Of a stretch of 64,000 nucleotides of DNA, positions 4,988 through 61,077 are shown piece by piece. The notes under the pieces are model-generated. The model was not told the DNA's origin. It did not search any database and saw only the letters and a list, made by a program, of their open reading frames with translations. The position numbers were made by a program, and so were the translations under genes. This DNA is from an uncultured Verrucomicrobiae bacterium (GTDB taxonomy: Bacteria; Verrucomicrobiota; Verrucomicrobiia; Chthoniobacterales; UBA10450): assembly GCA_963756875.1 (NCBI GenBank), contig CAVWPA010000003.1, forward strand, positions 864,001 through 928,000, given 5' to 3'. Numbering within the stretch: the stretch's first letter is position 1; every line of letters starts with the position of its first letter.

Positions 4988-6838
4988 ATGGAATTACGGG
5001 CGCAGAGGCGCAAGGCCACTACCTCGGAAGAAGGATTCAAACAGTCGCGGTTCGCGATCCAGATCGCGCTCGTTGTTCTGGCGGTTTTCGTAAGCTATTG
5101 GCCTGCGCTTCACGCCGGTTTCGTTTGGGACGACGAAATGCTTGTTACGAAAAATCCGCTTCTCCAAAGCTTTTCAGGTCTGGCCGAAATTTGGTCCGGT
5201 AGCAGGACGGCGGATTATTTTCCCCTAACGAACACGGTGTTCTGGATCGAACATCACGTCTTCGGTCAGAACGCGGCTGGTTACCACGCCGTTAATATTC
5301 TTCTTCAGGCACTGAACGCTCTCCTTATCTGGGCGGTGTTGCGGCGGCTGGGGATTCCCGGTGCCTGGCTCGCCGGCCTGATCTTTGGGATCCATCCAGT
5401 GCACGTGGAATCGGTCGCGTGGATCTCCGAACTAAAGAACGTCCTCTCCCTCTTCTTTGCGCTCCTTTCCCTTCTCTGTTTTCTTGAGATCGACGGGAAG
5501 CGACGGCTCAGCGCCAAAACGGCCTATTCCGCCTCTTTGTTTTTTTTTATTATGGCGCTGCTTGCCAAAACCCAGGTTGTATTCCTGCCGGTCGTGCTGT
5601 TGCTCTGCGGATGGTGGTTAGACCGGCGTCCGTCGGGAAAGGCAAAGACCAAAGATTTTCGGCGCCAGGCGATACGGATTGCGCCCTTTTTTCTGGTCGC
5701 CATCGTGCTGGGGTTGGTGACGATTTGGTTTCAAAACCGCGGCATCGGCAAGGAGGAGATTCTCCTCGGAGGATTTGCTCGCCGTCTCGTAAACGCGGGC
5801 ATGGCAGTCTGGTGGTATTTGGGAAAACTCTTTGTCCCGGTCGATTTGATGCCGATCTATCCTCATTGGAAATTTGGTATTCCCCAGCCGATCGAATGGG
5901 TGCCGGTCATCGCTCTAGCAGGACTTCTCGCGACTCTCTGGTGGTGGCGCGAACGCGGGACGCGCGGCGCGTTGTTTGCATTGGCCTGTTTTATCGTGGC
6001 GCTCGGGCCGGTGCTCGGATTTGTGCGAATGGCATTTGTGCGAAGCGGCACGCTCGTCGCGGATCATTGCCAATATTTTGCCGACATTTCCCTGATCGCC
6101 TTGTTCAGCGCGAGCATCGCGTTTTTGTGGACGCGGCGAGGACGTGCTATCCGAATCGCGACGATGATCGTTTTAGTGCCGCTGCTTGGCGCGCTGGGCG
6201 GTTACACCTGGGTTCGGGCGGCCGTTTTCCATAGCGAGGAAACTCTTTGGCGCAACGCGCTAGCTAAAAATTCGGACGCATGGCAAGCCCACGCCCGTCT
6301 CGGCCTGCTTTTTTTGAACAAGGAAAGATATGCGGAAGCGGCGCAGGAATTCGAGCGCACCGTCCAGTTGAAGCCGGAACTGCCGGAACATCACAACCTG
6401 CTTGGACTGGCCGATTGCCGGCTGGGCCGTTTCGACGAGGGAATTGCTCAGTATCGGGAAGCGTTGCGATTAAATGAGGGCGGATCGACTCCCGCTGACG
6501 ACGCGAGCATAGCAACGATTCGCACCAATCTCGCCAACGCCCTGGCTCTTACTGCAAATAACCTCATCGGCTCGACGCAAACATTTTCAGGCCAAACGAG
6601 CGTCGGCGGCCGCGATGCTGAAGCAATGCGGCGTTTTGACGAAGCAATTGCGCAGTATGAAAAGGCGCTCGAACTCGAGCCGCAACAGCCCGCGATCCAC
6701 CGGAACCTTGGGATCCTTCTGGTCAGGCTGGGGCGATTTAAGGAAGCGGTAGTGCAGCTGCGCGCAGCATTGAAAATTGAGCCTAACGAGCCGATCGCGC
6801 GCGAAACACTCAATGAGATTGAGGCCCAGGGCCAGTAG
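4988..6838 (+). CDS. TMTC-like GT-C membrane protein with C-terminal TPR repeats (paralogue)
   Basis: FVWDD, YFPLT, HPVHVESVAWISELKN, multiple TMs, TPRs. Confidence 0.82.
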   Translation: MELRAQRRKATTSEEGFKQSRFAIQIALVVLAVFVSYWPALHAGFVWDDEMLVTKNPLLQSFSGLAEIWSGSRTADYFPLTNTVFWIEHHVFGQNAAGYHAVNILLQALNALLIWAVLRRLGIPGAWLAGLIFGIHPVHVESVAWISELKNVLSLFFALLSLLCFLEIDGKRRLSAKTAYSASLFFFIMALLAKTQVVFLPVVLLLCGWWLDRRPSGKAKTKDFRRQAIRIAPFFLVAIVLGLVTIWFQNRGIGKEEILLGGFARRLVNAGMAVWWYLGKLFVPVDLMPIYPHWKFGIPQPIEWVPVIALAGLLATLWWWRERGTRGALFALACFIVALGPVLGFVRMAFVRSGTLVADHCQYFADISLIALFSASIAFLWTRRGRAIRIATMIVLVPLLGALGGYTWVRAAVFHSEETLWRNALAKNSDAWQAHARLGLLFLNKERYAEAAQEFERTVQLKPELPEHHNLLGLADCRLGRFDEGIAQYREALRLNEGGSTPADDASIATIRTNLANALALTANNLIGSTQTFSGQTSVGGRDAEAMRRFDEAIAQYEKALELEPQQPAIHRNLGILLVRLGRFKEAVVQLRAALKIEPNEPIARETLNEIEAQGQ

Positions 6839-6850
6839 CCGGAACGAATT

Positions 6851-8044
6851 CTAGAGCAGCCGCTCTGCTGCCTGGTCGACGTCTTTGTCCCCGCGCCCGG
6901 ACAGATTGACGACAACAATTTTTTCACGCGACATTTCGGGTGCGGTTTTGATGACGTGGGCGATGGCATGCGCGGTTTCGAGGGCGGGAATGATCCCTTC
7001 GATCTCGGAGAGCGCCCGGAATCCTTCCAGCGCTTCGTCGTCCGTCGCATAGGTGTAATCCACCCGGCCAATGTCGCGCAGATAAGAATGCTCCGGACCG
7101 ACCGCGGCATAATCGAGGCCTGCGGAGACGGAATGCGTGAGAGCGATCTGGCCGTCTTCGTTTGCGAGCAGAAATGTCTTCGTGCCCTGAAGCACGCCGA
7201 GCCGCCCGCCTTGAAAGCGCGCGGCATGTTTTCCGGCGCGAATGCCTTCTCCGCCGGCTTCGACGCCAACCATTGCCACTTGCCGGTCCTCCAAAAAAGG
7301 GTGGAACAGGCCGATGGCGTTGCTACCGCCGCCGACGCAGGCGACCAGCAAGTCGGGGAGTCGTTCCTCACGCTCGAGAATTTGGCGGCGTGTCTCGATT
7401 CCAATAACGCGTTGAAAATCACGCACCATCATCGGGTATGGATGCGAACCGAGCACCGAGCCTAAAATGTAGTGAGTCGTGCGCACGTTGGTGACCCAAT
7501 CGCGCATGGCTTCGTTAATGGCTTCTTTGAGTGTGGCCTGGCCGACGGTAACCGGCACGACTTTGGCGCCGAGCAATTTCATGCGCGTAACATTGATCGC
7601 CTGGCGATCCATATCGGTCTTGCCCATGTAGACCACGCATTCGCAACCGAAACGCGCCGCGACGGTGGCGGTGGCGACCCCATGCTGACCGGCGCCGGTC
7701 TCGGCGATGATTCGCCGTTTGTTCATCCGTTGTGCGAGCAAAATCTGGCCAAGTGCGTTGTTGATCTTGTGCGCGCCGGTGTGCAACAGGTCCTCGCGTT
7801 TCAAATAGATTCTTGCGCCCCCGAGCTTCCTGGTCAGGCGCTCGGCCAGGTAAAGCGGCGTTGGCCGCCCGGCAAAATCACGGAGCAAGGTCGACAGTTC
7901 GTTTTGAAATGCCGGATCGTTTTTGGCGCACTCGTACTCACGCGCCAAATCTTCCAGCGCGGACATGAGCGTCTCGGGCACAAACATCCCGCCGTACGGA
8001 CCGAAATGGCCGCGCGAATCGGGGACTGTTGCAGGAAGTGGCAT
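6851..8044 (-). CDS. trpB: Tryptophan synthase beta chain
   Basis: [15 protein letters not shown] (PLP Lys), [32 protein letters not shown]. Start MPLPATVPD at 8044. Confidence 0.97.
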
Positions 8045-8061
8045 GGCGAATTCCGGTAGAA

Positions 8062-8096
8062 AACGTCCAATGCTCGGCGCCGAACGTCCAACGCTT
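8062..8096. repeat. Heptamer tandem array (5 x AACGYCY-like)
   Basis: aacgtcc aatgctc ggcgccg aacgtcc aacgctt. Overlaps the mutY stop codon. Confidence 0.7.
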
Positions 8097-11877: not shown

Positions 11878-14364
11878 TCAGGGAATTGTTTCGGTTCCCA
11901 GTAAATTGCGGATCGCTTCGTCCAACCGCTCGAAGTTGATCGGCTTGGTCAGGTGATCGGAGAAGCCGGCCGCGCGCGCCTTGGTCACGTCGTTCTCCAT
12001 GCCGAAGCCGGTTAACGCGATTCCGCGCAATCCCTTGCTTTCACTTAACTCGCGCATGAGTTCGTAACCGCTCCGATCAGGCAAACCGATGTCGCTGATC
12101 AACAGATCGAAATCCTGTTGCTGCGCTTTTTCCACGGCCTGATCGGCCGAGTGTGCAATCGTGATCCGGTAACCGCGCCGCTCCAGCATCATTTTCATTC
12201 CCGTGCATGTGTCGGCGTGATCATCCACAACCAGGACACGGCGGGGCGGCCGCACGTCATCTTTTCCTTTCGGTTCAGCCGGGCCTTTCCGGTCGCCCCT
12301 GGAGACGGGGGCGGCGACCGTCTTGAGTTTGACCACGAAGGTAGTGCCCAAGTCTTTTCCTAGACTCTCCGCGCTGATTTTGCCCCGATGCGCTTCCACC
12401 ATCGCCTTGGAGATGGCGAGTCCGAGTCCCAGGCCGCCAAACCGTCGTGTGATGGAGCTTTGGCCCTGCTCGAAAGCGTGGAAAACCTTGCCAATCTTTT
12501 CCTGGTCGATCCCTATCCCGGTGTCGGAAATTCTGATCTCGATTTCTCCCGGTGTGGGATTTTGCGTTGCAATCGTGATTCGTCCCCTGGCTGGCGTGAA
12601 TTTCACGCTGTTCTTAATCAGGTTCCAAAAGACCTGTTGCAGACGGGCCGGGTCGCCTTCGATATGCGCCTCTTCCGCGTTGAGTCGAAATTGCACTTCC
12701 AGATCCTTGGCGGCAATTTCCTCTTCGCAGATTTCGTAGGCTCGCCGTAAAATTTCGTGTGCGCTGACAGTTTCGAAAGTGAGCTGCAACTTCCCCTTGG
12801 CGATTCGCGTGACGTCGAGCAAGTCGTCGATCAAGCGTGCTTCCAGTTCGACATTGCGCCGGATCACTTCGAGCGCCTGCTGGATCCTGGGCGAGTCAGG
12901 CGCATCGGCCTCAAGCTCGCCCACCATCGCAATGACCGGAGTCAGCGGATTGCGTAATTCGTGGGAAAGAAGCGCAAGAAATTGGTCCTTGGCGGCATTG
13001 GCATTGATGAGTTCCTGGCGCAAAGCCACGTCGCGCGTTTTGTCTTCTACGAGGTAAAGAACTCCTTGAATATTCTGCCGCGCCCCTTGCAATCGCAGCA
13101 GATGAACGTTCACAAAGTGCGTCATGCCTCCCTTGTCTTTGAACGGGTGTTCGATCAGCTGGAACGGCGTGCCGAAGGAAAGAACTTTCTCGATTGTATC
13201 GGCGGGCGCGATTTTCACTTCGTCATATGTTGCGTCCATGATGTCGCGACGAGTGGCGAAGTCTCCAAATCGCTGCGCCATGTGGGCAAATGCTTCATTC
13301 GCCTGAAGAAAGCGACGCGAGGTCGGGTGGACAAATGCGATGCCGATCGGCATGTTGGCCAGAATTTTCTCGTTAAAGATAACTTCACGCTCGATCCGGC
13401 GCGCCGCTTCGGTCTGGCGCCGGTAAAATTTACCACTTAGCCAGGCGAAGATGGCCGTGAGGGCCATCAGCCACATGGCGAGCACGGTGATTCGACTACG
13501 CCAATCGTACACCGATCTAAAGGCGATGGCTTTTGGCTGCTCAACCAGCGCCACCCATTTCGTCGTTTCGATTGGGCTGAATGAAATGAGATCCCCATGC
13601 TTCTCCAGATGACCGGCTTTGTTCGGCTGGATCTCCTTGATCAAACTTGCGCGGGCCCGTGGCGGTCCGACAGGTTTCGGCCTCAGGTCGTTACTGAAAA
13701 GGGCCTGCCCGGTTTGATCGAGAATCTGACAGATGAGTTGATCGGAAAACTGGACCATCGACAGGCGGCGCCCAATTCTTTCGACCAGGACGGATACCCC
13801 AAGATAGCCAACAATCGTCCGATCGGGCGTCCGCACGGCGCCGACAATATCGGTCACCATGCGTTTGTCAGAAAAGCGCGGATGCACAGGCGAGACGTAC
13901 GTTTCGCTCGACGCGCTGGCTTGTTGGCGCCAAAGACTTGCACCGAAATCCTTTCCGATCATCGTCGGGTTGGCTGGAACCGATGAGATCAATCGCCCGT
14001 CGGTTCCCGCCAGGAACATTCCGTCGATGCGAGGATGGGAATAAAATGTAGACCCGAGCCATTGCTGCCCCGCAAGCTCCGGATTCGGCCCGGTCAGGAT
14101 CTTCGCGACCTCGGGAGAGGTCTGATAGTATTCGATGATGCCGCTGGTCCGGCCCAGGTCGTCACCGACCAGGTGCCCGATCAGCTGTACAAAGGCCTGA
14201 CGATCGCGCAGAATTTTGGATTCCAGCGTGCTGCTGAGAATGGTATAGGAGAGCCATAACATCAGGATGGAGGGGACCCATCCGGCCAGCAGTATTGCAA
14301 AGACAATATTGAAGCGGTCGAACCGATTGTGCGCGGATTTCTCTACTAGGTTTGGCAGGGGCAT
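11878..14364 (-). CDS. Hybrid sensor histidine kinase (Cache-like, PAS, HisKA, HATPase, REC)
   Basis: Two TMs flank a periplasmic Cache-like domain. LSHELRNPL H-box, NSVKFT, DTGIGI, GGLGLGL, receiver VLVVDD...SDIGLPD...KP. Confidence 0.93.
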   Translation of the reverse strand: MPLPNLVEKSAHNRFDRFNIVFAILLAGWVPSILMLWLSYTILSSTLESKILRDRQAFVQLIGHLVGDDLGRTSGIIEYYQTSPEVAKILTGPNPELAGQQWLGSTFYSHPRIDGMFLAGTDGRLISSVPANPTMIGKDFGASLWRQQASASSETYVSPVHPRFSDKRMVTDIVGAVRTPDRTIVGYLGVSVLVERIGRRLSMVQFSDQLICQILDQTGQALFSNDLRPKPVGPPRARASLIKEIQPNKAGHLEKHGDLISFSPIETTKWVALVEQPKAIAFRSVYDWRSRITVLAMWLMALTAIFAWLSGKFYRRQTEAARRIEREVIFNEKILANMPIGIAFVHPTSRRFLQANEAFAHMAQRFGDFATRRDIMDATYDEVKIAPADTIEKVLSFGTPFQLIEHPFKDKGGMTHFVNVHLLRLQGARQNIQGVLYLVEDKTRDVALRQELINANAAKDQFLALLSHELRNPLTPVIAMVGELEADAPDSPRIQQALEVIRRNVELEARLIDDLLDVTRIAKGKLQLTFETVSAHEILRRAYEICEEEIAAKDLEVQFRLNAEEAHIEGDPARLQQVFWNLIKNSVKFTPARGRITIATQNPTPGEIEIRISDTGIGIDQEKIGKVFHAFEQGQSSITRRFGGLGLGLAISKAMVEAHRGKISAESLGKDLGTTFVVKLKTVAAPVSRGDRKGPAEPKGKDDVRPPRRVLVVDDHADTCTGMKMMLERRGYRITIAHSADQAVEKAQQQDFDLLISDIGLPDRSGYELMRELSESKGLRGIALTGFGMENDVTKARAAGFSDHLTKPINFERLDEAIRNLLGTETIP

Positions 14365-35368: not shown

Positions 35369-35683
35369 TCGGCGCCCGAATTTCAAACGAGCAGTCGTCG
35401 CCATTTTCACTCCGGGCGACTTTGGCCTAACGAATCAGGAGGATTTTCCAAAGCTGGAAATGTTCCTGTTTAATTACGCGCCCGAAAGCGGGCAAAAACG
35501 GCCCCAAAAATTCTTTAATTTTTTTCTAGGCAGCCGCAGGGAAATCCGATAGAACGGCAAAAAACGGGATTGGCGGGCGACAGTTGGTCCGGCGGCCCCG
35601 TTCAAAAAAAGCTTAAAAAAGTGAAAAAAAACCTTGCCAGCGTGCAGATTCTTCAATAATGCCTAGCGCAACCTAACCAAACC

Positions 35684-38600
35684 ATGGAGAAACCAATGAC
35701 TAGAAACGTACCTAACAAACTGGGATTGCTTCGCGCCGCTTTCGTAGCCGGTGTCGGGCTGCCTCTGATCATCGCCACGAGCGTCCGCGCGCAAAACCTA
35801 GCGCCTGCGGAGCAAAATGAGCCTCGGCCGGCGGAAGCGACAGCCGAGCGCGTTATCGTGACCGGGTCCAACATTCCGACGGCGGAAGAAGTTGGTGCAA
35901 ACCCGGTTCTCACGTTGAACCACGACGTCATCAAAAAGGCGGGCGTGCGCACCACGGAAGAACTTCTGCAGCGGCAACCGGTCATCAACGCCAACCAGAT
36001 CCCGGTGCAAAATAACGGAACCAGCCAGTCCGGTCCGTCCGGCACCAGTTCGATCGCCCTTCGCGGGCTTGACGTTCAGGCCACTCTCGTTCTGGTCGAT
36101 GGCAAGCGCGTCGCGCCCTATCCGGGTGCCTCGTTCGTGGATTTAAATAATATTCCGCAGCCGTTCATCGGCAGCATCGAAATTCTGAAACAGGGCGCTT
36201 CCGCCGTGTACGGAGCCGATGCGGTAGCCGGCGTCGTGAACATTAAGTTGAATAAGGATTTTCGCGGCGTCCAGGCGACGGTCGAGTACGGCAATGTGAT
36301 GGATAAGAATGCCGCCCGCTACCTGGGCGACGTTCTCTTTGGTGTTGGCGACGACAAAACTTCGATCACCGGCGATATCTTCTACTATCACCACAATTCG
36401 ACGTTCAATGGTGACTACGGCAACTCCGCAGTCCCGCCGTTCCTGAGTTCCAACGCCAGCCCGTGGAACGTCCAGGTAACCCGTGCCGCGGTACTGTCCA
36501 ACCCTACAAATGGGTTCGGGGCACAGGATCCGTTTCCCAATATAAATCACACCGACAATCCCACGCTCTTCGACAACTTGTCGGTAGCACGGTTACCACT
36601 ATTACCTGAATGCGGCCGGTCTGACGGCGATCGGCAACACGGATAACAGCTCAACCGGAAGAGACAACGCCACCAACATGGCCATGATCGATAGCATTCA
36701 TAAGCTGAATGTCGTGAGTTCGGGCGGCGTCTTCCTGGGGCTCACGCCGAACAACACGTTCTTTACGTCCAACCCGAGGAATTATCAGGATGCCCCCGGC
36801 AGCGCTTCAAATTGGCACTATGGCCAGGGACGTCTGCACGCTTTTAACTTCAACAAGTTCTCCAGTTCGTTCCCCGAGCAGGAGCGCTGGGGCGGTTACG
36901 CATCATTCATCCATAAGGTTTGCGACGATCAGGTGCAGGTCTATGGCGACTTCATGTATGACGACTCAAAGACGCATGATGAGTTGGCGCCAATTGCCAC
37001 CGGCTCGTTCCAAACAACCGGCAACCCGGTGATCGCCGTCCCGCCTCACATGGACTTGAACGGCATGGTTGGCGGCCCCGGAATGGAGTATGCCGGCACG
37101 CCGACCTACGCCGCGACCGGCGTGGACAACCATGCCTATAACCCGTTCAATCCGTTTAACCAGATTCTGTCCGGCGGCACCCGGGCCCGTATCTTCGACT
37201 TCGGCAACCGACTCATCGATAACGAAGCGTATGCCTGGCTGACCACTCTGGGTGTTAAAGGCGACAAGCTGTTTGATGGAAACTGGGGTTACGACTCCTT
37301 CTTCCGTTACAGCCAGACCGACTTGGTTTCCCGGATCGTGACGGCCGCGGGCACCCGGTTCGCCGAGATCATGAATGCGAACAGTCCGATCTTCGACCCG
37401 GCTTCGAGCCAGTATATCGGGACGACTGTTCCGTACGATCCGTTCTACCACTACCTCGGCCAGGAGCCGCCAACCAACCGTTACTCCGTCAATTACGCCC
37501 GAGCGAATGTTCGCGACCTGTCGAAATCCTCGGTTGCGCAGGCCGGTGTGAATATCTATACGGTAGACCTGTTTGATCTGCCGGCAGGCGGGGTCGGCTT
37601 TGCCGTCGGCGGTGACTGGCGCCGGGAGGAATACAAGTTCAACCCCGACGATCAAGACAGACTTGGGAACCAGCTTGGTGTCGGCATAGCTCCGTATGCC
37701 GCGGGCGGTCGCAAGACTTATGCGTTCTATGCGGAAACGACGATCCCAATCTTCAGCCCGACGATGGGCGTTTGGGGATTGCACTCTCTGGAGTTCGATG
37801 CCGCTGGCCGGTTTGAGGACTTCAGGAATAACAGCACCAACGTGTTGGTTCCGAGAGTGTCCTTGCGCTGGCAGCCGTTTGACGAGGAACTGACCCTCCG
37901 CGCCTCGTGGGGTGAAGGCTTCCTCGAGCCGTCGCTCAGCGAGCTCTATAATCCGCCGTTTTTCACTCTGGCGCCGACCGTCTATCACGGCCACGCGGAG
38001 CCGGAAACAACGTACGAAGTCACTACGAACAAAAACCTGAAACCGGGAGATTCCCGCGACTTCACTGCCGGGTTTGTCTACACCCCGAAGTGGATGCCAC
38101 AAGGGCAAACGTTGACCGTCGGAGCAGATTTCTGGGACATTGAGCGCAGCGGTGTTGTTACCCAACCCAGCGCTGCGGAAGTGGTGCAGCGTTTTATACA
38201 TAATAACCTGCTTCCCGGCGAAGTCGTCCAGATCGACCCGGTTAGTGATAGCGTGAACTTTGTGAAATCCGGTTTCCTCAACGCGGGGAAACAGAAGGCG
38301 CGTGGCGTCGATCTCACGCTGCTTTACCAATACCAGACACCCAACTGGGGAACCTTCACCTGGACGTCCCAGGCGACCTACCTTGACTCGTTCATCTTCC
38401 AGTTGGATACGACAACGAGGCCACACGAAGTCAGCGGGCGTGCCAACAACGATCCGTTTGAGGGCGCGTTCTTCGGCGCGGCGACCGCCGGCGACGGCTG
38501 GTTGAAGTGGAAAGGCGCATCGACGCTCGACTGGTCGTGGCACAACTTCGACTTCGCCTTTACCGAGCACTATTGGGACGGGTTTAAGGAGGAGTGGTAC

Positions 38601-38990
38601 CCCGCGGCGTTGCGTGGAAAGTTTTTCTTCAACCCGGCTTACCCGGAGCGTGACCATTACGTGAGCCAGCGTTGGTTCTCCGATATCGACACTTCTTACA
38701 CTCTACTCTTCACGCCTCCTGTGGAGTCGCAGCCGGTGGCCGGCTACTCGAAGGGCGGCAAGGAAATGATGACGGGCAAGGACAAGCAGGTCGAAACGGC
38801 CGCTTATGAAATGCCATGCTGGAAAACCATCCTGAACAACACGACGCTGACGTTCGGTGTGACCAACCTGTTTGGCCAAGACCCGCCGCAGATGTACGGG
38901 ACCTTGTATTCCAACTCCGACAACTATCCGGGCTCCCTGTACGACAACCTGGGACGCTTCTACTACATCCGGTTAACAAAGAAGTTCTAG
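35684..38990 (+). CDS. TonB-dependent outer-membrane transporter, apparent +1 frameshift near 36580-36600
   Basis: Signal peptide, RVIVTGSNI TonB box, LRGL...TLVLVDGKR, IEILKQGASAVYGADAVAGVVNI plug, barrel ending GVTNLF...YDNLGRFYYIRLTKKF with C-terminal Phe. Confidence 0.92.
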
Positions 38991-39017
38991 GCGTCGCAAA
39001 CGTTAGGTAATAATTCA

Positions 39018-39055
39018 AGAGGCAGCCTCGCTTTCGGGGCTGCCTCTTTGCTTTT
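39018..39055 (+). terminator. Rho-independent terminator after the TonB-dependent transporter
   Basis: AGAGGCAGCCTCG-CTTT-CGGGGCTGCCTCT followed by TTGCTTTT. Confidence 0.85.
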
Positions 39056-39064
39056 GTGATCTCT

Positions 39065-39282
39065 GCTGGTGGGGCGAGACTCTGTCGAGCCGACGAATAA
39101 ACTCAGGTCTGAATTTTCCTGGCCAGCGACGCTGTTCGGAATGACCGGGGTTTTCAACGAGGCTGCTTGGAATTTGAAGCTCTGTTTTTCGTTTTTCAGA
39201 CCCAGGGTAGGATTTTGTCGGCTCGACAGAGTTTACCCGCCGCAGGCGGCGCCAAAGGCGACCAGGGTCTCGTCCCACCAGC
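39065..39282. repeat. REP doublet with an interrupted right arm
   Basis: GCTGGTGGGGCGAGACTCTGTCGAGCCGAC ... GTCGGCTCGACAGAG[insert]TCTCGTCCCACCAGC. Confidence 0.75.
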
Positions 39283-39366
39283 GTGAGTTCGAAATCTTCT
39301 CCGAAACTCCGGGCGATCGTCATGGTTGAATCTTTGACGGTCAAAAACTGAGAGGTAACTTTTAAT

Positions 39367-39669
39367 ATGAAAACATCAAAGGCGGTAAAGATTGTGTCCT
39401 TGCTGTTAAGTGGAGCGTTCTTGGCGACCCCAATGTTTGGCGGGCAACCCAAGGACAAATCGTCCAAGAACAAAGACAAGGACCAGTATGAATATGTCTT
39501 TGTCACTGGATCGAGCATCCCTCGGAAGGTGAAGATTAAGTCTGTCGGGAACGCGATTTCGAACCTGCGCGTCTACAACCGAAAAGAGATCGATCAAACC
39601 GGCCGAGCGACAACGGCAGGCGTTCTGGCCCAGGACCCGTCCGTTACGGTGAGGGGCCCCAAGGGCTAA
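39367..39669 (+). CDS. Small exported protein resembling a free TonB-box / plug N-terminus
   Basis: Signal peptide, then YVFVTGSSIP...LRVYNRKEIDQTGRATTAGVLAQDPSV, which aligns by eye with the adjacent transporter N-terminus. GAGG upstream of the ATG. Confidence 0.78.
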   Translation: MKTSKAVKIVSLLLSGAFLATPMFGGQPKDKSSKNKDKDQYEYVFVTGSSIPRKVKIKSVGNAISNLRVYNRKEIDQTGRATTAGVLAQDPSVTVRGPKG

Positions 39670-39684
39670 GTTTAGAAGAGAGTG

Positions 39685-39808
39685 AGCACTGTTGAAAAGC
39701 TTAGCCGGAGCGGGATTCCTGTGGTGGCAGCCGTGCCGGCTGCGTTACGTTTTGCAGGCGACACGCCTGCCTCTACAGAGTTACGATAAGAGGCTTTTCA
39801 ACAGTGCT
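39685..39808. mobile_element. MITE family A (124 bp) carrying a REP doublet
   Basis: Perfect 16-bp TIR AGCACTGTTGAAAAGC / GCTTTTCAACAGTGCT. Perfect 9-bp flanking direct repeat AAGAGAGTG at 39676-39684 and 39809-39817. Confidence 0.9.
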
Positions 39809-40030
39809 AAGAGAGTGCAAGCATGCTCTGGCATGCGCGGAGCACAGCTTGAGCTGCCGGCCTGCAAGCGCCTATAGCGGACGCTGGCTGGGAGTCTGGA
39901 AGACCCAAAATACCGGGATTTGCCGTAAACGCAGTTTGGCTGTGGGAAGCGGCACCCGAGGGGATGTCCAAGGTCTCAGGGATAACGTCCGGATCGCGGC
40001 CTGAAGGATCAGTTTTACGCCGATGCACGT

Positions 40031-40072
40031 GGGCCGGCAGGATTGACAAAATCCTGGCCCAGATTGTATTCA
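40031..40072 (+). promoter_or_regulatory. Putative sigma70 promoter with a palindrome over the -35 box
   Basis: TTGACA at 40043-40048 inside CAGGATT-gacaa-AATCCTG. Weak -10 (TGTATT/TATTCA) 16-18 nt downstream. Confidence 0.45.
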
Positions 40073-40245
40073 GCTTCCGGGCGCGATTGATGGCCCTGAT
40101 GACGCTTTGGGCTCGATGGGCTCGACGAAAGGGTCGCCCCCTCCTGGGGCCGAGCGCGGCGGGCTTTGCACCGCCATAGAGGGAGCCTAAAGCGGGGGTT
40201 GTAGGGCATGTCGGGCGACATGGGATGCCTCGGGCAATCAAAGTC
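40073..40245 (+). ncRNA. Candidate structured non-coding RNA or leader, family not recognised
   Basis: Nested stems TTGATGGCCC/GGGCAATCAA, CGCTTTGGGCTC/GAGCCTAAAGCG, GCTCG/CGAGC, GCCCC/GGGGC, CATGTC/GACATG. G-U pairs favour the + strand. No credible ORF. Confidence 0.35.
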
Positions 40246-40461
40246 CACAGGTTGCATTCACTCTAGGAAGTCGGCATTTACAGCACGCCAGATCTGCTCC
40301 ATGCCGGGCTGATCTAATCACCGAGGGAAGAGGCTTAGAACCCTGGGCGCATCCTTCCTTGGCACCTTCTCTTGCCGAGGCGCTGGAAACCCGTCCGGCT
40401 GGGGAGTTTGTGCGCGATATAAGGGCTGGCACAGGCTGTGCTTATAATCATCATAACCACC

Positions 40462-41100
40462 ATGATTATTATAAGCCTTCTTCCCTTTACCGCGCGCAAA
40501 GCTTTCTGCCTGGCCGGCGCTATCCTGGTCCTTTGCTCGGTCTCTTCCTTCGCCAGACCGGTGTTCGTCAATGTCGATAAGACTCCTTATGACCGGCAAA
40601 TGACCCGAATCCGCCCTGTCCTGCTTTCCCGCCACACCGGCGGACACGAAGGCGTCTCGCTGGCCATCGTGAATAACTGGATTTGGAATCTGCGCGCGAT
40701 CCCATACGGGTTTTGCCCACAATGGAAGACCCCGGCCGAAGTGGAATCCGGAAGCATGGCCGATTGCAAAGGCAAAGCGGTCGCCCTTTATGACATCATG
40801 CGCTCGCACGGCGCGCAAAACGTCCGGCTGGTTATCGGGAAGCGCTCCTGGATGAGCCGAAAAACGCACGCCTGGTTGGAATGGACGACCCCTAATGGTA
40901 CATATGTGCTCGATCCGACGATCAACTGGACCGCAGCGCGCGTCTCCCGGTTCGGCAGCAGCTTTTACATTCCGTTCTACGCGTACGCTGGGAACCACAA
41001 ATACCGCGCTGCCAGTTCGACCATGTTCGCCAAGGCCGAGACAACGACAAGGCGCCATCACAATCTCTGGGCGGTCAACTCCGCTCCTGCTGCTCATTAA
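40462..41100 (+). CDS. Exported transglutaminase-like cysteine peptidase (BTLCP / LapG-like)
   Basis: Signal peptide, W.TPAE....ADCKGKA (Cys), THAWL (His), YVLDP (Asp). Confidence 0.8.
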   Translation: MIIISLLPFTARKAFCLAGAILVLCSVSSFARPVFVNVDKTPYDRQMTRIRPVLLSRHTGGHEGVSLAIVNNWIWNLRAIPYGFCPQWKTPAEVESGSMADCKGKAVALYDIMRSHGAQNVRLVIGKRSWMSRKTHAWLEWTTPNGTYVLDPTINWTAARVSRFGSSFYIPFYAYAGNHKYRAASSTMFAKAETTTRRHHNLWAVNSAPAAH

Positions 41101-60993: not shown

Positions 60994-61077
60994 TGGGCAG
61001 GGCTGGATTCGAACCAGCGAAGGCGTAAAGCCAGCAGATTTACAGTCTGCCCCGTTTGGCCACTCCGGAACCTACCC
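60994..61077 (-). tRNA. tRNA-Tyr (GTA), CCA not encoded
   Basis: GGGTAGG acceptor, GAGTGGCCAA D-loop, GCAGA-CTGTAAA-TCTGC anticodon arm, long variable arm, GGTTCGAATCC, CCTGCCCA. Confidence 0.96.

Follow-up and report, generated by a model that had tools for sequence, protein, structure and literature searches.

The 100-residue open reading frame at positions 39367-39669 on the forward strand of the 64,000-nucleotide stretch of DNA analysed here (the window, from contig CAVWPA010000003.1 of an uncultured Verrucomicrobiae bacterium of the order Chthoniobacterales) is, with very little doubt, a functional gene, and its product, below called the mini-protein, is homologous to the N-termini of TonB-dependent transporters. 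What is new is that a sub-domain of a transporter is kept as an independent gene family, for which neither Pfam nor NCBIfam has a model. The function that we prefer for it, and to which we give an even chance of being correct, is that of a periplasmic TonB-box protein, which would dock on TonB and modulate TonB-dependent transport.

The kinship can be followed from the gene next door, which encodes a TonB-dependent transporter of about 1090 residues (35684..38990, forward strand) with a Plug domain (PF07715, E 2e-18) and a barrel (PF00593, E 6e-22). In a BLASTP comparison with the N-terminal frame of this transporter (35684-36646), residues 28-93 of the mini-protein are paired with residues 41-101 at 27% identity (E 0.001 in a single comparison), and the sequence YVFVTGSSIP of the mini-protein is aligned with RVIVTGSNIP of the transporter. 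This is the register in which the initial annotation had placed the mature part beside the neighbour's plug, and the relation is recovered with much better significance (E 7.3e-9) when the N-terminus of the neighbour is matched by a profile of the whole family (A2, 88 sequences). When the A2 profile is run over 401 genomes of the phylum, it finds matches in 35 of them, mostly N-termini of frames with 880-1365 residues and with E-values from 1e-10 to 1e-5 per genome, and dozens of transporter frames in this length range are matched in register. The exhaustive search described below also returns P0188 (E 2e-4) and P0193 (E 5e-4), both N-termini of transporters, in which VVVTGSRIP and ITVTGSNIP, respectively, are aligned to YVFVTGSSIP and the start of the plug is aligned as well; the other long matches there are P0114, P0140, P0144, P0146 and P0163, of which P0144 and P0146 were inspected and judged to be spurious hits to repeat proteins. 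Compared with the sequences of the PDB, the family profile gives a weak match, again in register, to FauA (3efm residues 50-86, E 1.5), at the place where its plug begins. From the alignment to the neighbour, whose Plug match begins at residue 74, the mini-protein covers about the first third of a plug. The plug similarity that the initial annotation expected of profile searches is, hence, borne out by the family profile, which matches transporter N-termini, but fails when Pfam is run against the mini-protein, where no family is found at E ≤ 1, Plug PF07715 included. A search for longer forms, in itself weak evidence, gave no full-length transporter with a near-identical N-terminus, and one candidate there was an over-extended reading frame call.

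Names given to the family by its sources do not go beyond 'hypothetical protein', except for two JGI entries called 'outer membrane cobalamin receptor'. The 30 nearest clusters in the ESM Atlas are divided into 25 without a Pfam family and 5 short clusters of the 'TonB-dependent receptor family'; the three of the former that are shown consist of hypothetical proteins, in two cases mostly from Verrucomicrobiota.

That the gene is real follows from its relatives. A search at near-equal length leaves, from 46 candidates, 42 clusters of 96-104 residues with 45-100% identity, one of which is labelled by its source as Spartobacteria bacterium. Of the genome collection, 48 places match the search pattern; 6 of them code for relatives, each within a metagenome-assembled genome of Verrucomicrobia or Chthoniobacterales. 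In the metagenome collection 145 of 222 matches do so, the best 80 of which were kept. The fetched loci amount to 86 in total, and the reading frame could be extracted from 83 of them, the remaining 3 being cut by the end of the contig. Some start codons were mis-picked in this scripted extraction; the core is open and the stop stands at a common position in every extracted frame except that of locus L008, which has two matches in different frames and a frame of 43 residues, and most of the extracted frames are 95-106 residues long. An exhaustive HMMER search among 1.84 billion representatives finds 167 clusters (at 50% identity) with E ≤ 1e-3 and 69 with E ≤ 1e-10; nearly all have 70-135 residues, and among the matches listed, 150 of the 167, the length is at most 182 residues in 143. 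The family is, moreover, under purifying selection. The ratio of nonsynonymous to synonymous substitution rates (dN/dS), calculated by the Nei-Gojobori method from 1651 pairs, not independent of each other, among 70 unique coding sequences with an overall dS of 0.1-1.5, is 0.27 for the whole protein (residues 1-100) and so clearly below 1. It is 0.35 for the signal peptide (1-26), 0.39 for the linker (27-41), 0.21 for the core (42-95) and 0.77 for the tail (96-100).

These observations bear directly on the suspicion that the frame could be the dead remnant of a duplicated transporter 5' end or a spurious frame, or that the true gene could be the 167-residue frame at 39015-39518 on the opposite strand, which overlaps it in the list of open reading frames. 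The suspicion is natural for a protein that covers just a fragment of a known domain and in which Pfam finds nothing, but a remnant does not account for hundreds of intact homologues of the same length with a conserved stop, for a dN/dS of 0.21-0.27, or for the joint conservation of signal peptide, start region, promoter-like block and Shine-Dalgarno sequence. Nor is there a decaying barrel behind the gene: comparison by tblastn of the transporter with positions 39670-40437 gives matches at chance level only (E 1.9-5.4). The antisense frame, for its part, has no match in Pfam and no counterpart across the mini gene in the open reading frame lists of six genome loci. All these forms of the suspicion are already contradicted by the present data, and we regard them as very improbable. 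The initial annotation had described an intact frame of 100 residues with a signal peptide, a ribosome-binding site of its own and a clean stop, set apart from the transporter by a terminator and unlike a broken fragment; this observation is confirmed as a whole, and its interpretation is partly supported, in that the action on TonB which it proposed is plausible.

The gene starts with ATG and ends with TAA after 100 codons, and its product has four parts. Residues 1-26 (39367..39444) form, by inspection, a signal peptide in which MKTSK is followed by a hydrophobic core and in which the n-, h- and c-regions of the Sec type can be discerned; M1, K2, T3, S4 and K5 are at least 90% conserved in the alignment of the closer set of relatives (A1), and in homologues this region ends in AFA/NP or AFA/SP, with the slash at the presumed cleavage site. 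Residues 27-41 (39445..39489) are a variable and charged linker, which differs in length and sequence between homologues and is rich in lysine and aspartate in the window protein. After the linker, the window protein reads YVFVTGSSIPRKVKIK, and then ...LRVYNRKEIDQTGRATTAGVLAQDPSVTV. Residues 43-58 (39493..39540) comprise the TonB-box-like strand YVFVTGSSIP and the basic strand RKVKIK, together a predicted beta-hairpin, while residues 61-95 (39547..39651), to which ...LRVYNRKEIDQTGRATTAGVLAQDPSVTV belongs, are by sequence alignment homologous to the start of the plug and contain two short predicted helices. The mature protein has about 74 residues and is basic, with a pI of 10.1 in the window and a family median of 10.3. 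The window protein contains no cysteine at all, and only 2 of 64 family members have one in the mature part. The mini-protein is most likely exported by the Sec pathway and is predicted to reside in the periplasm.

Conservation points to the TonB-box-like motif. Over the 88 sequences of A2, residue G48 is the sole invariant one, and M1, T47, S49, I51, P52 and G79 are conserved to at least 90%; from this it follows that the TonB-box-like VTGSxIP forms the family's core. In the closer set A1, the TonB-box residues V44, G48, S49 and P52 are invariant, and so are R72, I75, D76, G79, R80, T82, V86, L87, A88, D90 and P91 of the plug start. The conservation of VTGSxIP fits a function directed toward TonB. 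In structural terms, AlphaFold2 gives a mean predicted local distance difference test score (pLDDT) of 55.6 with A1 and of 69.9 with A2, and in both models residues 40-44 and 53-57 are the strands of a hairpin, while residues 72-78 and 83-87/89 form short helices. Searches with the better model, by Foldseek against the PDB and by a wide VIA-align, gave no match, and because the model is not a compact domain, this null result says nothing about the fold.

The mechanism that we propose can be put as follows. The mini gene has, in our reading, arisen from the 5' end of a transporter gene and been retained as a gene family of its own, usually arranged with one particular transporter orthologue as a two-gene module in which it lies just downstream. 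In the mature protein, a flexible linker leads to a TonB box (YVFVTGSSIP), and the sequence ends after roughly one third of a plug, counted from the plug's start. Its exposed TonB box would pair, in the form of a beta-strand, with TonB's C-terminal domain, like the TonB boxes of transporters, and the mini-protein would then compete with the transporters for a limited pool of TonB, or tune this pool in some other way, with an expression level that would be set by the promoter of the mini gene itself and not by that of the transporter. TonB boxes bind the C-terminal domain of TonB by beta-augmentation and are present also in group B colicins (PMC11658791). Compared with the transporters, TonB is in short supply, and TonB-dependent uptake is inhibited by free TonB-box peptides, by an overexpressed FpvA N-terminal domain and by an overexpressed periplasmic domain of TonB (PMC9841981, which credits Tuckman and Osburne 1992, Nader et al. 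2011, Howard et al. 2001 and Higgs et al. 2002).

Three known systems can be set beside the mini-protein. With the N-termini of TonB-dependent transporters (BtuB, FhuA, FauA) it has the signal peptide (here as read by inspection), the linker, the TonB-box strand and the first plug elements in common, in the same order and register, but it ends after about one third of the plug, has no barrel, and is encoded by a separate gene in a terminator-bounded unit, in a family of about 100 residues. The TonB box is thus found in register before the plug, while a complete Plug domain and the 22-stranded barrel (PF00593) are absent, and because of this absence of a complete plug and a barrel the mini-protein stands outside the transporter family. 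With artificial competitors, i.e., the ETVIV pentapeptide, siderophore-coupled TonB-box peptides and the overexpressed FpvA N-terminal domain (PMC9841981), it would share a TonB box that is free in the periplasm; these are, however, man-made and inhibitory, whereas the mini-protein is natural, chromosomal and selected, and inhibition by it is conjectural. With bacteriocins such as the group B colicins and pyocin S2 (PMC11658791), finally, it shares the placing of a TonB box in the flexible N-terminal region of a protein that is not a transporter. Those are large secreted toxins that enter from the outside by means of receptor-binding and killing domains, in contrast to the mini-protein with its approximately 74 residues, its apparent Sec signal, its plug-derived sequence and, as judged from Pfam and NCBIfam, no receptor-binding or cytotoxic domain. 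FecR was considered as a further comparison and dropped, because the TonB box in that system belongs to FecA (PMC12036975). Literature searches, at the level of titles and abstract openings, gave no paper on a natural free-standing TonB-box or plug-fragment protein.

The family belongs to soil Verrucomicrobia, and the distribution of the mini gene is narrow. When 301 genomes of the order, related samples and not independent ones, are searched with the A1 profile at E ≤ 1e-3, 27 genomes match, the genome of the window (G000) included. The gene is present in 23 of the 39 genomes of its own family (f1, with the unpublished genome G173 counted as non-matching), in 3 of the 30 genomes of family f6 and in 0 of the 231 genomes of the other 14 families. 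Its presence is associated with that of the neighbouring transporter: among 38 genomes of f1, a close orthologue of the transporter, defined by at least 47% identity, accompanies the mini gene in 16 of 23 cases, and of the 15 genomes that lack the mini gene, 1 has such an orthologue (G065). In 13 genomes (G014, G084, G125, G133, G165, G194, G201, G236, G243, G263, G268, G278 and G300) the mini gene lies 0.1-3.6 kb downstream of the transporter on the same strand, the transporter of G014 being just 31% identical. Several genomes have 2-5 paralogues of the transporter and only 1-2 mini genes. Orthologues of the TonB that was modelled occur in 40 of 41 genomes of the family, two unpublished ones counted, so that the presence of TonB does not depend on that of the mini gene.

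The same pairing is seen in the gene order. Throughout the fetched loci the recurrent order is transporter (+), mini gene (+), a variable middle, alkaline phosphatase (-) and iPGM (+), where the variable middle is either a gene for a 643-residue TPR membrane protein (-) or a 220-residue transglutaminase-like gene with an F5/8-type-C gene. The C-terminus of a transporter is found upstream on the same strand in 56 of the 83 loci, at a gap of 132-2726 nucleotides (median 266); 16 loci have less than 1.2 kb of upstream DNA and cannot be judged, and 11 have at least 1.4 kb without a transporter end. Many of the 83 loci are near-duplicates, and the number of unique spacers is 51. The pairing is repeated in the distant members L125, L126, L131 and L132 and, in family f6, in L133-L135. 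Locus L125 (genome G278) contains two mini genes (6001-6300 and 13214-13531), 7 kb apart, between which sulfotransferase-like genes and a TPR gene are inserted. L131 and L132, from two genera, have an extra gene for a secreted-looking protein of about 160 residues without a Pfam match between transporter and mini gene (7443-7934 and 7603-8085, both on the reverse strand).

Transporter and mini gene appear to be punctuated separately. A terminator-like hairpin with a 14-bp stem and a T-rich tail (39017..39048, forward strand) stands 27 nucleotides after the stop codon of the transporter, and in 50 of the 51 unique spacers a hairpin (stem of 9 bp or more, T tail) follows 23-28 nucleotides behind the transporter stop, where shuffled sequences predict 1.45; its stems show compensatory changes. 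About 37-65 nucleotides upstream of the ATG of the mini gene there is a promoter-like conserved block, CGAAACTC-N16/17-GGTTGAAT (39302..39330), and 11 nucleotides before the ATG the Shine-Dalgarno-like, purine-rich GAGAGG (39350..39355), both on the forward strand. Relatives have a purine-rich stretch at the matching place, and 55 unique upstream regions share CTTCTCCGAAACTC-N16/17-GGTTGAAT..TGAC together with this stretch, the block being nearly invariant. It probably acts as a promoter. The transporter has a conserved block of its own, in which A-tracts are followed by CTTGCCAG...TCAATAAT (16 unique sequences) and which differs from that of the mini gene. With a conserved terminator between them and differing blocks in front of them, the two genes look like separate transcription units under different control. 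On the 3' side of the mini gene there is a weak terminator-like hairpin (39727..39743, forward strand), which is not a supported feature: hairpins occur at this place in 28 of 67 unique downstream stretches of relatives, compared with 19 of 67 after shuffling, and a terminator after the mini gene was rejected in view of this lack of clear enrichment. Among sequencing runs listed as carrying the sequence words searched there is no RNA run; there are only two DNA runs from soil metagenomes, with small shares of 0.13 and 0.08.

The first half of the block, CGAAACTC, is similar to G-AAC-T, the -35 element for sigma factors of group IV (PMC1540707), and control of the mini gene by a sigma factor of the extracytoplasmic function type is a lead only. 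A GAAAC/GGAAC...GTT motif is present within 250 nucleotides upstream of 0 of the 11 sigma-70-region-2 genes checked in the genome, and a loose pattern of the block occurs 7 times genome-wide, compared with about 5 expected by our own estimate. The closest look-alike of the block (CGAAACTTTGGGCGTTGGCGCTGGTTCAA) lies outside the window, at G000:C3:999517-999545, about 80 nucleotides before a frame of 419 residues, which by its motifs we take to be an acyltransferase-3-type membrane protein.

Several observations weigh against the reading of the mini-protein as a TonB-docking modulator of transport. Its binding to TonB is something that we infer, and a co-fold of the two proteins, with a score of 0.00 and with controls not run, is used neither for nor against it. 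The scan with NCBIfam, like that for the Plug family of Pfam, found no match, and the monomer models, of modest confidence, match no solved fold. The mini gene is absent at E ≤ 1e-3 from 16 of the 39 genomes of f1, with a TonB orthologue present where this was tested. Its link to the transporter is not obligatory: in G054, G283 and G296 transporter and mini gene are separated by 45 kb or lie on different contigs, in L127-L130 a paralogous mini gene of one genus has a ClpX-like AAA gene as its neighbour and lacks a transporter in the vicinity, and the 2-3 kb that follow each of four close transporter paralogues (L166-L169) contain nothing similar to the mini-protein (best E 0.14). The conserved gene order must in part reflect inheritance, since the block includes housekeeping genes such as iPGM. 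Within the close family, finally, the plug-start half is conserved as well as the TonB box. This last point is not accounted for by a pure decoy and would allow for a second contact, made either to the transporter or to some other partner in the envelope.

An alternative is that the mini-protein is an accessory subunit of the neighbouring transporter and not a ligand of TonB. Its plug-start half would then dock on the transporter, at the periplasmic face or inside the lumen, where it could for instance fill the space that is left when TonB pulls out the N-terminal segment of the plug, and would gate or latch the plug or help it to re-fold. The gene pair is conserved across two families, the presence of the mini gene tracks that of the close transporter orthologue (16 of 23 versus 1 of 15), 11 plug-start residues from R72 to P91 are invariant in A1, and all members end precisely after the second plug element, as one might expect of a subunit. 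But the transporter already has a TonB box and a complete Plug domain of its own, there is a strong terminator between the two genes and their promoter-like blocks differ, mini genes exist without a transporter nearby (L006, L127-L130, G054, G296), and it is the TonB-box motif, not the plug part, that makes up the invariant core of the wide family. We consider such a subunit unlikely. The initial annotation had offered 'trans-acting plug piece' as an alternative, and this is the weaker version of its proposal, because the neighbour has its own TonB box and full Plug domain.

It could also be that the mini-protein is a small exported protein with no relation to TonB, in which VTGSxIP is kept for folding or for another interaction and the likeness to transporters is a matter of ancestry only. 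The inferential nature of TonB binding speaks for this, as does the very basic character of the protein (pI about 10, family median 10.3), which could point to an acidic component of the envelope. So do two natural fusions, P0043 (248 residues) and P0044 (239 residues), in which a complete mini-protein is joined to a C-terminal Peptidase_S74 domain (PF13884, the intramolecular chaperone of endosialidase) and a coiled coil; they sit on short metagenome contigs of 1.5 and 2.1 kb. However, the motif conserved across 88 diverse members is exactly the one that stands at the TonB-box position in transporters of the phylum, and the mini gene is found in association with genes of TonB systems, and a function apart from TonB is for us an improbable outcome.

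The number of motors in the genome of the window suggests yet another role. In these 2.7 Mb there are only 2 genes with a Plug domain, compared with 6 genes of the MotA/ExbB type and 6 matches to TonB_C above the Pfam cut-off (11 at E ≤ 1), i.e., many more motors than transporters, so that most motors have no obvious transporter client. The mini-protein could then be an adaptor by which a motor of the TonB/ExbBD type pulls on cargo other than a transporter, such as an envelope protein or the cell wall, with the TonB box as the handle and the C-terminal half as the end that holds the cargo. A divergent member with 47% identity, in locus L006 (5068-9355), would suit this role: there the order is ExbB, ExbD, a TonB_2 (PF13103) protein that is TonB/TolA-like, a 149-residue frame, the mini gene and RuvC. 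With its RuvC neighbour, this may be a Tol-type cluster. Proteins from f19, another family of the class, point in the same direction: they are small, have a lipobox-like cysteine, and contain only a motif of the type YxxVTGSxIPKKVKK, after which unrelated sequence follows (L120 6902-7267 (-), L121 6995-7264 (+), L122 6983-7255 (+), L123 6986-7324 (-) and L124 6974-7162 (+)). They may be TonB-box proteins anchored as lipoproteins; in L121 there is a transporter on either side of the gene, and in L124 there is one in its vicinity. For the mini-protein itself, on the other hand, the usual neighbour is a transporter and not a motor, and the C-terminal half resembles plug sequence and no known binding domain, and we find an adaptor quite unlikely.

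The preferred reading, a mini-protein that docks on TonB and modulates transport, can be sharpened into a bolder one, which is possible but which we hold only tentatively and would not bet on. The mini-protein would be a natural, genome-encoded TonB-box decoy or governor, expressed from its own promoter, possibly with an alternative sigma factor. By occupying TonB it would re-allocate active transport over the outer membrane or shut it down. More broadly, TonB boxes would be portable handles on small proteins without a barrel, the lipoprotein-like relatives included, and these would be clients for orphan TonB/ExbBD motors. If this were true, the mini-protein would be the first natural counterpart of the TonB-box competitors made in the laboratory and a simple regulator of outer-membrane active transport, which bears on how cells allocate scarce TonB energy among competing transporters, and the orphan TonB/ExbBD motors of Verrucomicrobia would gain clients that are not transporters. 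In addition, the family shows that the plug sub-domain adjacent to the TonB box is able to live on as a gene of its own, which bears on models that make this segment the part of the plug that is labile to force.

The assembly splits the neighbouring transporter into two reading frames (35684-36646 and 36678-38990) by a single change of frame, which falls between about 36548 and 36696; the frame for the N-terminus runs to a stop at 36646, and that for the C-terminus is already open at about 36589. Apart from this the transporter is collinear with the intact 1085-residue orthologue of locus L003, and the frame change is either a real mutation or an assembly error; the transporter of L004 is split alike. 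Pfam finds no STN domain before the TonB box of the transporter, nor in the mini-protein. The region upstream of the transporter (about 35480-35683) is very conserved, also in 15 other loci, and contains long A-tracts (AAAAAAGTGAAAAAAAA), CTTGCCAG, about 16 nucleotides and TCAATAAT. About 100 nucleotides further upstream there is a second, similar A/T-rich block (CTAGGCAG...), and the arrangement resembles a duplicated promoter region.

Downstream of the mini gene, the 220-residue frame of the variable middle (40438-41100, forward strand) has weak matches to the transglutaminase core (E 0.009-0.02), below the cut-off. It is syntenic in many loci with 50-63% identity, and its 3' end overlaps an over-long call of 566 residues for the F5/8-type-C frame. 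The sole match to Rfam at the gathering threshold in the window is a tRNA gene at 60994-61077 on the reverse strand.

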